Shown piece by piece: positions 1 to 6,000 of a stretch of 64,000 nt of DNA. The position numbers were made by a program. The DNA is from Escherichia coli (GTDB lineage: Bacteria > Pseudomonadota > Gammaproteobacteria > Enterobacterales > Enterobacteriaceae): assembly GCF_036507355.1 (NCBI RefSeq), contig NZ_AP027877.1; one strand, written 5' to 3'. The stretch's first letter is position 1, and each line of letters opens with the position of its first letter.

Positions 1-3000
1 CAGGAAGTTGAATTTGGTATTGAGAACGGACCTAAAGGTCCTGCCGCTGTTCATGTAGTGGCGCTTTGAGGTAGACAATATTACAAACCATATTCACTTT
101 AGATGCCCGTGTTGTCATGGTTCCCAGTATAGAACATCATCTTTTGATGTTTCTGACATGAATCCTTTCGGGGCAAAATGTATCTTTTGTAAATCAATGA
201 TGATTACATTTGATAATATTTCACAATACTTAAATGCCAGCCGTCTGTCGTTGGATTTGAAAAAGTGAAAATGAAGGCTCCTTCGGGAGCTTTTTTGCTT
301 GGTGTCTATTCGATGGATACTCACATACTACGGTAACATCATGAAAAAAATCATAGTTTTTTTTAACTCTGAACCAGCAGTGGTAGTGCCAGCGATGACT
401 GGAGTTAACACCATCATGCGTGAATATCCAAATGGCGAAAAAACACACCTTACTGTAATGGCCGCAGGGTTTCCATCTCTGACCGGAGATCATAAAGTCA
501 TTTATGTAGCCGCGGATCGACATGTTACTTCAGAAGAAATTCTGGAAGCAGCAATAAGGCTCTTGAGTTGATTTGATGCTATTGCATTGATAATTCAGGA
601 AAATTCTCTTTGTCTGTTTGTGTAAAATTTAGACTATCGTATGTTGATTATTGCGATGTTTCATCTTATCTTTTACACGTTTGCACCATATAATCGACTT
701 ACTGTGTAACTGGAAAGTCATAACAGACTAAAAGAGGAAATGATGAATATTGAAAACTTAAAAACAAAAGCAGAAGCAGATATTTCTGAATATATAACAA
801 AAAAATTATTGAACTTAAGAAAAAGACCGGGAAAGAAGTTACCAGTATTCAGTTTACCGCACGGGAAAAAATGACGGGTCTTGAAAGCTATGATGTCAAG
901 ATTAATTTAATCTGATGTATTCAATAATAAAATTTATCCATAAACCTCGTTTTTACGGGGTTTTGTTATATTTGAATGGTTCCGAATATCTAAATCACAA
1001 TTGTTGATGATTTTTATTAAACCAATGCAGTCCGGCTCAGGAGTGAGAGAAGCCGGACGTTATGGTTTAGCGTGGTAAGATCTGTGTAGTTTTCTGGATG
1101 CTTTCAGTAAATAGTAATGAATCATCAAAGGTATAGTAATATCTTTTTTGTTCGTGGATATTTGTAACCCACCGAAAAACTCCTGCTTTAGCAAGGTTTC
1201 TTCTGTATTCCTGAAATGTGATCTCTCTGGATTTCAGCTTATTAGAGGTCGTTTCTATAAGATGCCTATCCTTTGAAAATTTGACAGACACAATGTTTTT
1301 TAGGCCCTTTAATAACACTGTATTATCATTTTTTAATACAATATGAACATTCTCTGTGGCTAAATAGTAAATGTAATGTGAGACATTGTGACGTTTTAGC
1401 TCAGAATAAAACCATTGATAGTTTAAATCGTTTCGAACTTTATCAAATATTTGTTTAAAAATGACTACCTGATCCATAGATAAACCTTCCATGTGATATG
1501 AGGGGGCGTAGTCTGCACGATTATCTAAATTGCTTCAATCTGGTCTGACCTGTTTTCTGAGCAATTCAGTAATGTCACTCTTTTCTTTGTTTGCTTCAGA
1601 AGAAACTCTTTTTTCTGAGCACAGTCTCCGGCGGCAGGCTTCAATGACCCAGGCTGAGAAATTCCCGGACCCTTTTTGCTCAAGAGCGATGTTAATTTGT
1701 TCAATCATTTGGTTAGGAAAGCGGATGTTGCGGGTTGTTGTTCTGCGGGTTCTGTTCTTCGTTGACATGAGGTTGCCCCGTATTCAGTGTCGCTGATTTG
1801 TATTGTCTGAAGTTGTTTTTACGTTAAGTTGATGCAGATCAATTAATACGATACCTGCGTCATAATTGATTATTTGACGTGGTTTGATGGCCTCCACGCA
1901 CGTTGTGATATGTAGATGATAATCATTATCACTTTACGGGTCCTTTCCGGTGATCCGACAGGTTACGGGGCGGCGACCTCGCGGGTTTTCGCTATTTATG
2001 AAAATTTTCCGGTTTAAGGTGTTTCCGTTCTTCTTCGTCGTAACTTAATGTTTTTATTTAAAATACCCCCTGAAAAGAAAGGAAACGACAGGTGCTGAAA
2101 GCGAGCTTTTTGGCCTCTGTCGTTTCCTTTCTCTGTTTTTGTCCGTGGAATGAGCAATGGAAGTCAACAAAAAGCAGCTGGCTGACATTTTCGGTGCGAG
2201 TATCCGTACCATTCAGAACTGGCAGGAACAGGGAATGCCCGTTCTGCGAGGCGGTGGCAAGGGTAATGAGGTGCTTTATGACTCTGCCGCCGTTATAAGA
2301 TGGTATGCCGAAAGGGATGCTGAAATTGAGAACGAAAAGCTGCGCCGGGAAGTTGAAGAACTGCGGCAGGCCAGCGAGACAGATCTCCAGCCAGGGACTA
2401 TTGAGTACGAACGCCATCGACTTACGCGTGCGCAGGCCGACGCACAGGAGCTGAAAAATGCCAGAGACTCCGCTGAAGTGGTGGAAACCGCATTCTGTAC
2501 TTTCGTGCTGTCGCGGATCGCAGGTGAAATTGCCAGTATTCTCGACGGGATCCCCCTGTCGGTGCAGCGGCGTTTTCCGGAACTGGAAAACCGACATGTT
2601 GATTTCCTGAAACGGGATATCATCAAAGCCATGAACAAAGCAGCCGCGCTGGATGAACTGATACCGGGGTTGCTGAGTGAATATATCGAACAGTCAGGTT
2701 AACAGGCTGCGGCATTTTGTCCGCGCCGGGCTTCGCTCACTGTTCAGGCCGGAGCCACAGACCGCCGTTGAATGGGCGGATGCTAATTACTATCTCCCGA
2801 AAGAATCCGCATACCAGGAAGGGCGCTGGGAAACACTGCCCTTTCAGCGGGCCATCATGAATGCGATGGGCAGCGACTACATCCGTGAGGTGAATGTGGT
2901 GAAGTCTGCCCGTGTTGGTTATTCCAAAATGCTGCTGGGTGTTTACCGGAGTCGGAAGTTGCCGGACATTGCAGATGAAGGCGCATTACAGAAATGGAGG

Positions 3001-6000
3001 TCTGTTCTACCGTTCCTCAAGAGATGGCTATGGTTTTGAGGAAGACTGGGCAGAAGTTTATACCTCGAAAAATCTTCCACCAGAAAGCTACCCAGTCGGT
3101 GCACCAATCCCGTGGCCATCAGATACCGTTCCGTCTGGTTATGCCCTGATGCAGGGGCAGACTTTTGACAAATCTGCTTACCCGAAACTTGCAGCCGCTT
3201 ATCCGTCAGGCGTGATCCCTGATATGCGTGGCTGGACGATTAAGGGCAAACCTGCCAGTGGTCGGGCCGTATTGTCTCAGGAACAGGACGGCATTAAATC
3301 GCACACCCACAGCGCCAGCGCATCCAGTACGGATTTGGGGACGAAAACCACATCGTCGTTTGATTACGGCACTAAATCCACGAATAACACCGGGGCGCAT
3401 ACCCATAGTGTTAGCGGTACGGCTGCTTCAGCCGGTGCACATACCCATTCGATAACATTTGTTTCAGGTGGCACCAAAGGTGCTCCGGGAAGTGGATCAC
3501 CTGATTATTCTAAATACAGTGTTAACACTTCTTCTGCAGGCGCTCATACGCACTCTGTATCGGGTACTGCTGCAAGCGCAGGTGCACACGCACATACTGT
3601 AGGTATTGGTGCTCATACGCACTCTGTTTCGATTGGCTCACATGGACACACCATCACCGTTAACGCTGCGGGTAACGCGGAAAACACCGTCAAAAACATC
3701 GCATTTAACTACATTGTGAGGCTTGCATAATGGCATTCAGAATGAGTGAACAACCACGGACCATAAAAATTTATAATCTGCTGGCCGGAACTAATGAATT
3801 TATTGGTGAAGGTGATGCATATATTCCGCCTCATACAGGTCTGCCAGCAAACAGTACCGATATTGCACCGCCAGATATTCCGGCAGGCTTCGTGGCTGTT
3901 TTCAACAGTGATGAGGCATCGTGGCATCTCGTTGAAGACCATCGGGGTAAAACGGTTTATGACGTAGCGTCAGGGGACGCGTTATTTATTTCTGAACTCG
4001 GTCCGTTACCGGAAAATGTTACCTGGTTATCGCCGGAAGGGGAGTTTCAGAAGTGGAACGGCACAGCCTGGGTGAAAGATGCAGAAGCAGAAAAACTGTT
4101 CCGGATCCGAGAGGCGGAAGAAACAAAAAACAGCCTGATGCAGGTAGCCAGTGAGCATATTGCGCCACTTCAGGATGCTGTGGATCTGGAAATCGCAACG
4201 GAGGAAGAAATCTCGTTGCTGGAAGCATGGAAAAAGTATCGGGTATTGCTGAACCGTGTTGATACGTCAACTGCACAGGATATTGAATGGCCAGCACTGC
4301 CGTAGGGTAAAACATATAAATTCTATAATTAGATGTATCTTTCCATTTACGGCAAGGAAGGGGGCTTGGAAGACGTAAAGCATCTCACACCGAGATTATT
4401 TTTTATATGTCAGGTGTCTGAAGTTTTGCTTTGGCTCTTAAAATGGTTTGCCGCGAGGTTTTGAATTCCCGGGCAATGGCACTTATACTTACACCTGACT
4501 TAATTCGTTCGAATACCGCCTGTTTCTGTTCTTCATTTAACACAGGTGGTCGACCAAAACGTTTCCCTGCGCCGCGGGCTCTTACTATCCCGGAATGAGT
4601 GCGTTCAAGTAAAAGGTCTCGTTCAAATTCAGCGACTGCTGAAATTACTTGCATCATCATTTTTCCTGTTGGACTGGTCAGGTCAATGCCCCCCAATGCT
4701 AAGCAATGCACTCTGATACCTGTTTCGGTCAGTTGTTCCACTGTTTTCCTGATATCCATTGCATTACAACCAAGGCGATCCAGTTTTGTCACAATCAATT
4801 GATCACCACATTTCAGGCGAGCAAGCAACCGGTTAAAACCAGGACGCTCACTGGTTGCTGCTGAGCCGCTAATGTGTTCTTCGATTATTTGCTGAGGTTT
4901 GATTTTAAAACCTGCACTTTCGATTTCCCGGCGTTGATTTTCGGTGGTCTGATCCAGCGTTGATATCCGACAGTAAGCAAAAATTCGAGACATAGTGAGA
5001 CTCTATACGAAATTGGTGTTCATATCATAATGCATCTCAGAAAATAATTATGATTATTTTTGTGCATATTTGTATGTACACGTTCGAAAATAAACGAATG
5101 CGTATGCAACCCCGTAATTTTGGTGAGACCCAAAATCGATTTTGTGAAAAATGGCTTTAACTCGGTTTGTTTTTCGAGTTCCGGGCGGACTCAAGGAAGA
5201 AGAATAGTGTTGCGTGTTATTTTAACCAGATTTCAAGTTGTTTGGTCGTGGAAAAGTGGAGCAAAATGTTGTTAAAGTGGAAAAATGATAAAAAAGTAAG
5301 TTTATTATATTACATTTTACCATTTAAATTTTGGTTGTCTTTAAGAACTGATATCGCTGTTTGTAATAATTCTTTGTTATCCAGCCATGATTTTTTCTTT
5401 ATGTTTCCTTCAATGTAATCAAGCAATGTTCTGGTATTGATAGGTCTTCCCTGTTTTGCTACTTCCACTACAGCATCCCCTAGGATAATTCTTACTTCAG
5501 GAAGCTGCGCAGGGAACCACTTTAGGGTGTCTTTTGATTTCATGAAGATATTCCTTAAAATATTATTGATTTTCATTGCGATATTGTATGTCTGATTCAG
5601 GATATGTTGACTTATACATCGGTTTTGTCTGGGTTATTGGATATGCCAATCCCTAATTTTATTAGGGCATGACTAAAAATGCTGAATATGATAAGGAGAG
5701 ATGTGATTATCAGTATGCTGTTCATATAGCCTCGAATTAGTAATGTGTTATATATGATATAGTTGACAATTTTTATCTTGGGTGTTCTTAAAGTTCGTAG
5801 ATAAACATTGTCGTTTCAGGTATACAGGAATGCTAACAGGTGGCAGCAAAAATCAGGCGGTTTATGGCGCAAGCTGAAGCGGCAACTGCAAACTATCTTA
5901 TGCAGAGACTCTACACGGATTGGGTTTAAAAGTATACATAGATAACAGTTTTTATCTGAAAAAGAAAAATATCAAGGTGATATAGCCTATATGCCTTTGA

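Follow-up and report, generated by a model that had tools for sequence, protein, structure and literature searches.

Anatomy of a terminase-tail fiber deletion joint in a Qin-type prophage remnant of Escherichia coli

INTRODUCTION

The closest described counterparts of the locus analyzed here are two prophage remnants of Escherichia coli K-12, Qin and DLP12. The locus itself lies at positions 2677 to 3730 of a 64,000-nucleotide (nt) stretch of E. coli DNA (RefSeq assembly GCF_036507355.1, contig NZ_AP027877.1; the whole stretch is called the window below), where the start of a lambda-type large terminase gene (A) runs into the end of a side tail fiber gene (stf). Qin of K-12 MG1655 (nohA b1548, stfQ b1547, tfaQ, and pinQ), which occupies the same ydfJ site with the same gene order, has lost the whole head-tail module but retains cos-nohA, the C-terminal part of stf, tfaQ, and pinQ, as does the window. 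The nohD-aaaD'-tfaD segment of DLP12 is a scar of the same kind, in which an N-terminal piece of A of about 308 nt follows an intact Nu1 homolog and aaaD' is joined to the tail fiber region at a joint containing TA (TAT), like that of the window. DLP12 differs in its locus, in a right-hand partner that falls within tfa (at about nt 147) so that no stf is left, and in the lack of an adjacent pin gene. Among strains, Qin has been found to range from 11 to 97 kb in size and to show mosaic decay (189 strains; PMC6379469), in an account that makes no mention of terminase or tail fiber. Text searches of the literature found no paper on this scar or on TA-biased deletion joints.

Intact counterparts also exist. 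Phage 2H10 (Glaedevirus, LR595862) has the order Nu1-A-W-B-C-D-E-FI-FII-Z-U-V-G-T-H-M-L-K-I-J-lom-stf-tfa-invertase-ydfK-like, with a Stf of 1117 amino acids (aa), and intact prophages at the Qin site (L134 and L142) follow the same plan from Nu1-A through J-lom-stf to the ydfK-like gene; they are 99.4% identical to the window on the A side and 93% on the stf-tfa side, but they keep the 21.2 kb that the window lacks. Lambda shares residues 1 to 90 of its large terminase subunit (gpA) with the window without a difference, and the His-rich C-terminal part of its Stf (orf-314; the lambda stf/tfa region comprises orf-401, orf-314, and orf-194) is 68% identical. Upstream of that His-rich domain lambda stf has no DNA similarity to the window, the match beginning at window position 3098 only, and lambda, unlike the window, has no pin gene.

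We conclude that 2677-3730 is, very probably, a non-functional joint within a cryptic lambdoid prophage of the Qin type, namely a homology-independent fusion of A to stf that is specific to one lineage. Taken alone, such a locus is ordinary prophage decay in a lineage-specific allele and matters little. It does exemplify how a lambdoid prophage can be gutted while cos, the small terminase subunit, the tail fiber tip, its chaperone, and an invertase survive, and its sister loci indicate that this one chromosomal site has seen many losses of the head-tail module, independent of one another and recent.

RESULTS AND DISCUSSION

The joint links codon 90 of A to codon 855 of stf

The elements on which the description of the joint depends are the following.

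1968..1979, plus strand: cosN GGGCGGCGACCT of the remnant prophage; an exact match and the sole one in the window
2157..2702, plus strand: nohA, Nu1-type small terminase subunit, 181 aa, intact (Pfam Phage_Nu1, E = 2e-101)
2677..2945, plus strand: A', 89 codons and a further 2 nt from the start of the large terminase gene (90/90 aa against gpA)
2944..2945, no strand: the deletion joint, TA in both parents (breakpoint mapping against 2H10)
2945..3730, plus strand: 'stf, the last 261 to 263 codons of a side tail fiber gene (Pfam Collar and Phage_fiber; GAHTHS repeats)
2946..3039, plus strand: out-of-frame tail of the A' open reading frame (ORF), 30 codons of stf DNA in the wrong frame and then a stop (ORF reading; no gpA match)

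A sequence-only reading of the window had presented this region as a Qin prophage deletion scar that opens with some 90 codons of the start of lambda terminase A. The likeness to large terminase subunits on which that reading depended is present, since protein alignment finds residues 1 to 90 of lambda gpA identical in 90/90 positions to the start of the A' ORF, and in a megablast search of phage genomes many lambdoid phages proved 99.4 to 99.9% identical in their Nu1-A region to window 2157-2945, with the match stopping at 2945. The A' ORF (2677-3039, 120 aa) has a GTG start and overlaps the end of nohA in the way that lambda Nu1 and A overlap; beyond residue 90, protein alignment shows no similarity to gpA. 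Full-length gpA has 641 aa in lambda and only residues 1 to 90 are found here, and A' is a pseudogene because only a fragment of gpA is left. The GpA_ATPase and GpA_nuclease domains (Pfam) were found on the longer gpA fragment of a sister locus, L141.

On the left, the exact lambda cohesive-end sequence at 1968-1979 indicates that cos and the small terminase subunit were kept. The spacing from cosN to nohA is 190 nt, like that of lambda, and nohA DNA is 98.9 to 99.4% identical to that of lambda and 2H10. With an exact cos and an intact Nu1 homolog, the chromosome may still contain a cos site on which the terminase of a lambdoid phage could act upon superinfection.

On the right, the tail fiber match starts at 2944 both in phage genomes and in E. 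coli genomes, and 'stf aligns with residues 855 to 1117 of the Stf of 2H10 (240/263 identical, 91%, E = 1e-159). Four GAHTHS repeats and seven H-x-H motifs are present, in agreement with the earlier assignment of this part to the C-terminal region of a side tail fiber with GAHTHS repeats. A complete Stf comprises a phage_tail_N domain, a shaft, Collar, and C-terminal repeats; here the N-terminal 854 codons are absent, including the phage_tail_N domain that is present in intact relatives. There is no start codon at the joint, the earliest in-frame ATG being at 2975.

Alignment with lambda A and a complete lambdoid stf, which the sequence-only reading had suggested as a check, located the joint. 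Optimal-breakpoint mapping with both parental regions of 2H10 places it at window 2943-2945, with nt 267-269 of A as the left partner and codon 855 of stf as the right. The parents read GGGTGTT[TA]tgcc in A and cttcta[TA]CCGGAG in stf, the window reads GGGTGTT[TA]CCGGAG, and TA is the only homology that the parents share at this point. From 2945 on, the stf-derived codons lie in frame 2, whereas A' lies in frame 1, which makes the proposed switch of frame real; its position, previously put near 2947, was 2 nt off. Relative to 2H10, 21,204 bp are missing, comprising the rest of A, then W, B, C, D, E, FI, FII, Z, U, V, G, T, H, M, L, K, I, J, lom, and stf codons 1 to 854.

The locus is a Qin-type remnant with a joint other than that of K-12

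To the right of 'stf and as far as the host chromosome, the window contains the following genes.

3730..4305, plus strand: tfaQ, tail fiber assembly gene, 191 aa, intact (Pfam Caudo_TAP, E = 5e-44; labeled tfaQ in homologous loci)
4403..4993, minus strand: pinQ, serine invertase, 196 aa, intact (Pfam Resolvase and HTH_7)
5310..5576, minus strand: ydfK-type cold-shock gene close to the remnant's right end (ORF; labeled ydfK in homologous loci)
6329..7612, plus strand: ydfJ, C-terminal 427 codons, a host gene adjoining Qin-type prophages (labeled "missing N-terminus" in homologous loci)
7702-9102: ydfI, adjoining the truncated ydfJ

The tfa gene and the pin invertase had been expected to be retained, and both are intact with Pfam support. 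The locus order is ydfO-ynfO-cos-nohA-A'-'stf-tfaQ-pinQ-ydfK, followed by the 5'-truncated ydfJ, which the remnant abuts, and then ydfI, as in K-12 Qin and many other strains. The flanks are collinear with those of K-12 and of more than 10 other Qin loci, and the DNA left of the joint is 99.5% identical to other Qin loci. Because gene order and the abutment on ydfJ match Qin, the locus is a Qin-type remnant of a decayed lambda-like prophage. The assignment to Qin therefore stands as far as order and the ydfJ flank are concerned, but the nohA/stfQ joint of K-12 Qin is a different one.

The window scar might be taken for the known nohA/stfQ scar of K-12 (b1547/b1548), given the same locus, the same order, and flanks that are 98.6 to 99.6% identical. 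Alignments rule this identity out, and we attach a negligible probability to it. K-12 similarity to the window stops at 2685, and the K-12 joint links A nt 9 to a different stf allele at a point 229 nt upstream of the shared region, compared with A nt 267-269 in the window; the two stf alleles differ upstream of window 3089, and the nohA-tfaQ interval of K-12 is 91 nt shorter. In K-12, the nohA reading has 189 aa, the stfQ ORF has 320 aa, and there is no 90-codon A' fragment.

With respect to the right-hand side, the window's exact TfaQ protein is on record on three short contigs only. Between 3250 and 4182, in stf'-tfaQ, the window differs by about 30 substitutions of its own from four other Qin loci that are alike at those positions, and at 2944-3217 the window allele is the same as in LD39-1 and NCTC9066. 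The stf'-tfaQ segment is presumably a mosaic patch from recombination with stf/tfa of another prophage.

The joint is absent from searched genome collections

A 200-nt query across the joint covered it in 0/5,426 complete E. coli genomes, and the joint pattern had no match in GTDB species representatives. In 241 million metagenome records the pattern retrieved one contig (L012), which carries a different joint; the window's joint was not found. The joint is specific to the window's lineage, and it is a sister allele of the scar, distinct from the K-12 allele.

A joint seen in one place only also raises the question of an assembly artefact, that is, a contig jump between two lambdoid prophages of the source genome. 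Besides this uniqueness, the reading could draw on the copy number of both partners, as most E. coli carry nohA-A and stf-tfa in several copies (median, 2 to 3 places per genome). However, assemblies collapse at long repeats and not at a 2-nt overlap, both flanks are collinear with the Qin loci of many finished genomes, and analogous joints occur in many independent complete genomes, which together make an artefact exceedingly improbable. We also examined whether the joint could be a mosaic boundary that occurs in intact stf genes, and this was rejected, since 115/115 IMG/VR stf genes with the downstream 24-mer have normal upstream sequence.

Other lineages lost the same module through different joints

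Annotated regions and exact-protein look-ups revealed at least 12 other arrangements at the same site. These scars were mapped on 2H10 and on the intact same-allele prophages L134 and L142, and the sample is biased towards loci that keep tfaQ. The joints are given below by the partners that they link, from left to right.

K-12: A9 to stf
PigCaeca_2 and L148: A168 to stf, at the stf nucleotide identical to the window's
EC26: A1233 to E..FI to stf
L149: A1233 to E..Z to a full stf
CREC-532 and about 20 other listed RefSeq genomes: A1570 to stf, in frame (annotated as a 601-aa "terminase")
SCU-118 and L132: A1090 to G-T-H51 to stf
WP2: A2078 to stf
L141: A1704 to stf
L139: nohA507 to a J fragment to stf
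L145 and L147: nohA507 to stf nt 145
L146: nohA507 to lom..stf' to 'stf
LD39-1 and NCTC9066: three joints

In addition, intact J-lom-stf with identical TfaQ proteins is found at the same ydfI site in L134, L135, L137, L138, L142, L143, and L151. Several loci have flanks that differ by 0 to 2 substitutions in about 4 kb and yet carry incompatible scars (L001 versus L002; L004 versus L005, L006, and K-12). Such near-identical flanks with incompatible scars indicate that the module was lost repeatedly and recently. Losses of this module in other E. coli lineages were independent and left different joints.

The joint of the CREC-532 type (L004, 3576-5381) links A nt 1570 to stf through the 8-nt repeat GGGATACG and is in frame by chance. 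The 601-aa "phage terminase large subunit family protein" annotated there is a chimeric pseudogene product. This calls for caution in annotation, as sister joints are called 601-aa "terminase" or "StfQ" proteins and are nevertheless chimeras.

The loss of head and tail genes in the window had been ascribed to one deletion. The gene set is missing as described, but that it went in a single event cannot be proven from one joint, and EC26, SCU-118, and LD39-1 are sister loci with multi-step decay. In LD39-1 and NCTC9066, the window's own alleles of A and stf extend to both sides of the point at which the window is joined, which means that the last step at the window could be only about 3.5 kb. 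A final step of about 3.5 kb fits the data as well as a single 21-kb event does, and the window's joint may represent either a single 21-kb step or the last of several.

TA is overrepresented at the joints, and some sites are re-used

In the scenario that we favor for the window, breakage and rejoining at TA would have fused codon 90 of A to codon 855 of stf by homology-independent joining, with only TA shared. To place this in context, we compared 20 joints (the window, the Qin-site variants, and the DLP12 scar), all of which had been found without reference to the joint sequence. TA lies within the microhomology in 13/20 (TA seven times, TAT twice, and GTA, TAC, ATTA, and GGGATACG once each); the seven joints without TA have no microhomology, GAAG, GAA, GGAT, GGATT, CC, and CT. 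When random joints were simulated in the same DNA, TA occurred in 2.5% of microhomologies of at least 2 nt, and 1.6% of the 2-nt microhomologies were TA. Against this null, TA is found in 13 of the 19 observed joints whose microhomology spans 2 nt or more (binomial P = 4e-17) and in 10/14 of the joints that share no site with another counted joint (P = 9e-14), and TA makes up 7/9 of the 2-nt microhomologies (P = 1e-11).

Furthermore, we observe that particular sites recur with different partners. The window's stf site is joined to A267 in the window, to A168 in PigCaeca_2, and to the Rz-cos region in the metagenome contig L012 (joint at 1481; the joint of L001 is at 4743). The stf site of the K-12 allele is joined in K-12 (A9) and in L139 (J), and a third stf site is common to CREC-532 (A1570) and SCU-118 (H51). 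At nt 507 of nohA, GA[TA]CCGGGG is used in L139, L145/L147, and L146, serves as the right-hand partner in LD39-1, and has four more partners in IMG/VR contigs (L042, L018, L067, and L153/L156). Position 87 of Z is the left partner in L149 and the right partner in L042 and has three further IMG/VR partners (L160, L161, and L162), two of them inverted. At this Z site (2H10 position 8804), L160 (1704-1725) and L161 (7577-7598) are joined to inverted DNA, in L160 again at TA, which suggests that the process yields inversions besides deletions. Where a hot site is kept on the left in some events and on the right in others, the break maps directly 3' of TA. Scans of the same type at two other TA sites in Nu1/A returned only single-nucleotide variants and no joints. 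Some of the evidence for hot sites was gathered by searches that had these very sites as anchors.

The adjacent invertase offers one account of how the window's joint arose. Pin would have made a site-specific deletion between the stf crossover site, the constant/variable boundary of a former invertible segment, and a quasi-site in A. Adjacent to the joint, pinQ is predicted to be an intact small serine recombinase gene (196 aa, Resolvase plus HTH_7), and its K-12 ortholog is active, inverting the P segment of e14 in trans (PMC12529663). The recurrence of the stf endpoint with three different left partners and the 2-nt shared core that serine recombinases leave would also fit. However, positions 2700-5100 contain no Din-type site AAACCNNGGTTT (with up to 2 mismatches) and no meaningful inverted repeats; a Din-type invertible segment has two inverted 26-bp sites with an AAACC-NN-GGTTT core, which this region lacks, and there is one tfa only. 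The pix sites of e14 that PinQ uses are canonical, with an AA/TT core and a position about 110 codons from the stf end (PMC12529663), and these control sites look quite different from the joint. The DLP12 scar, with no neighboring pin, also joins at TAT. We therefore rejected deletion by Pin, which is very unlikely on these grounds.

A broader and more tentative idea is that the window's joint, rather than being a case of random illegitimate recombination, is a product of a TA-specific, site-preferring breakage-rejoining activity that trims lambda-type morphogenesis modules repeatedly. Possibly, DNA is broken directly 3' of TA at a few hot sites (position 507 of nohA, position 87 of Z, and three stf positions shortly before the receptor-binding domain of Stf) and the ends are then linked to TA sites elsewhere, with deletions and occasional inversions as the outcome. 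Either a sequence-preferring nuclease acting together with end joining or a recombinase whose 2-bp core is TA would fit the data. The TA excess over the simulated joints, the re-use of TA sites with different partners set against two control TA sites that gave no joints, and the position of the break immediately after TA wherever a hot site is kept on either side are all in favor of this idea. On the other hand, the analysis pointed to no enzyme, 7/20 joints have no TA, the hot sites share no significant extended motif, the sample comes partly from site-anchored searches, and a preference for TA may be general to E. coli end joining. We consider a dedicated activity possible but doubtful.

Several features that might have marked the hot sites were tried and discarded. 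In a comparison for a shared extended recognition motif, the used sites were only marginally more alike than random TA sites, and GATAC and ATACCG, as short motifs, occur too often to single out hot sites. The motif TA(A)CCG[GC]G, formulated post hoc, covered 4/7 plus-strand copies, including three re-used sites, but failed its single forward test, with no joints at 2H10 position 8942. Predicted hairpins or cruciforms at the hot sites were no better than those of shuffled sequences (z-scores of −1.4 to +0.6). Chi-like exonuclease stops were seen by eye upstream of some left partners and were not mirrored at the right partners. The likeness to the lambda att core and to the Gabija GajA site AATAACCCGGATATT (PMC8136825) is too poor in cut position and sequence for a claim to be made. 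Adjacent deletion anchored by an insertion sequence (IS) was dismissed because no IS lies at the hot sites, a search for an stf flank next to foreign DNA found nothing, and the same site is kept on either side in different events; a 343-aa ORF suspected to be IS630 is a bestrophin by Pfam.

The TA-centered joints and re-used endpoints are statistically strong and worth following up. If a dedicated activity does exist, prophages would be disarmed by a specific nuclease or recombinase, encoded by host defense, a resident prophage, or a phage, rather than by random recombination. This would amount to a genetically testable mechanism of domestication and would provide a sequence signature with which module losses could be dated and counted in genome collections.

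Fate of the two fragments

The product of the homology-independent fusion is a 120-codon A' ORF, consisting of a Nu1-interacting N-terminus and a nonsense tail, next to a promoterless stf fragment that lacks a start, with cos, nohA, tfaQ, and pinQ left intact on either side. No sigma-70-like promoter was predicted on the plus strand between 1700 and 4460; with no predicted local promoter, a late promoter lying left of the window would be the source of any transcription, judging by lambda biology. Neither A' nor the stf fragment is likely to have a function.

Some observations weigh against the conclusion that the scar is a lineage-specific, non-functional joint. The joint rests on one assembly, whose source genome is absent from the searched collections. 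Every examined scar that keeps tfaQ also keeps at least the last 46 stf codons, most of them at least 240. StfE2 of e14, a Stf-derived chimera of another cryptic prophage, has anti-phage activity (PMC12529663). By analogy, a trans-active PinQ together with an anti-phage Stf chimera is a conceivable reason why the stf'-tfaQ-pinQ block persists.

Flanking DNA

Among complete E. coli genomes, none exceeds 99.1% identity to window 5000-9200; together with the IS1 described below, this suggests that the source is probably Shigella or an IS1-rich lineage outside the sampled genomes. Comparison with 2H10 did not define the Qin att core, as the homology tails off raggedly. At the left, a gnsB-like ORF at 740-874 encodes 44 aa, compared with the 57-aa GnsB of related loci, and may be a frameshifted or truncated copy. 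At the right, IS1 (9107-9875; InsA, 91 aa, and InsB, 167 aa) follows directly after ydfI, which encodes 466 aa in the window versus 486 aa elsewhere and is apparently truncated by the insertion.

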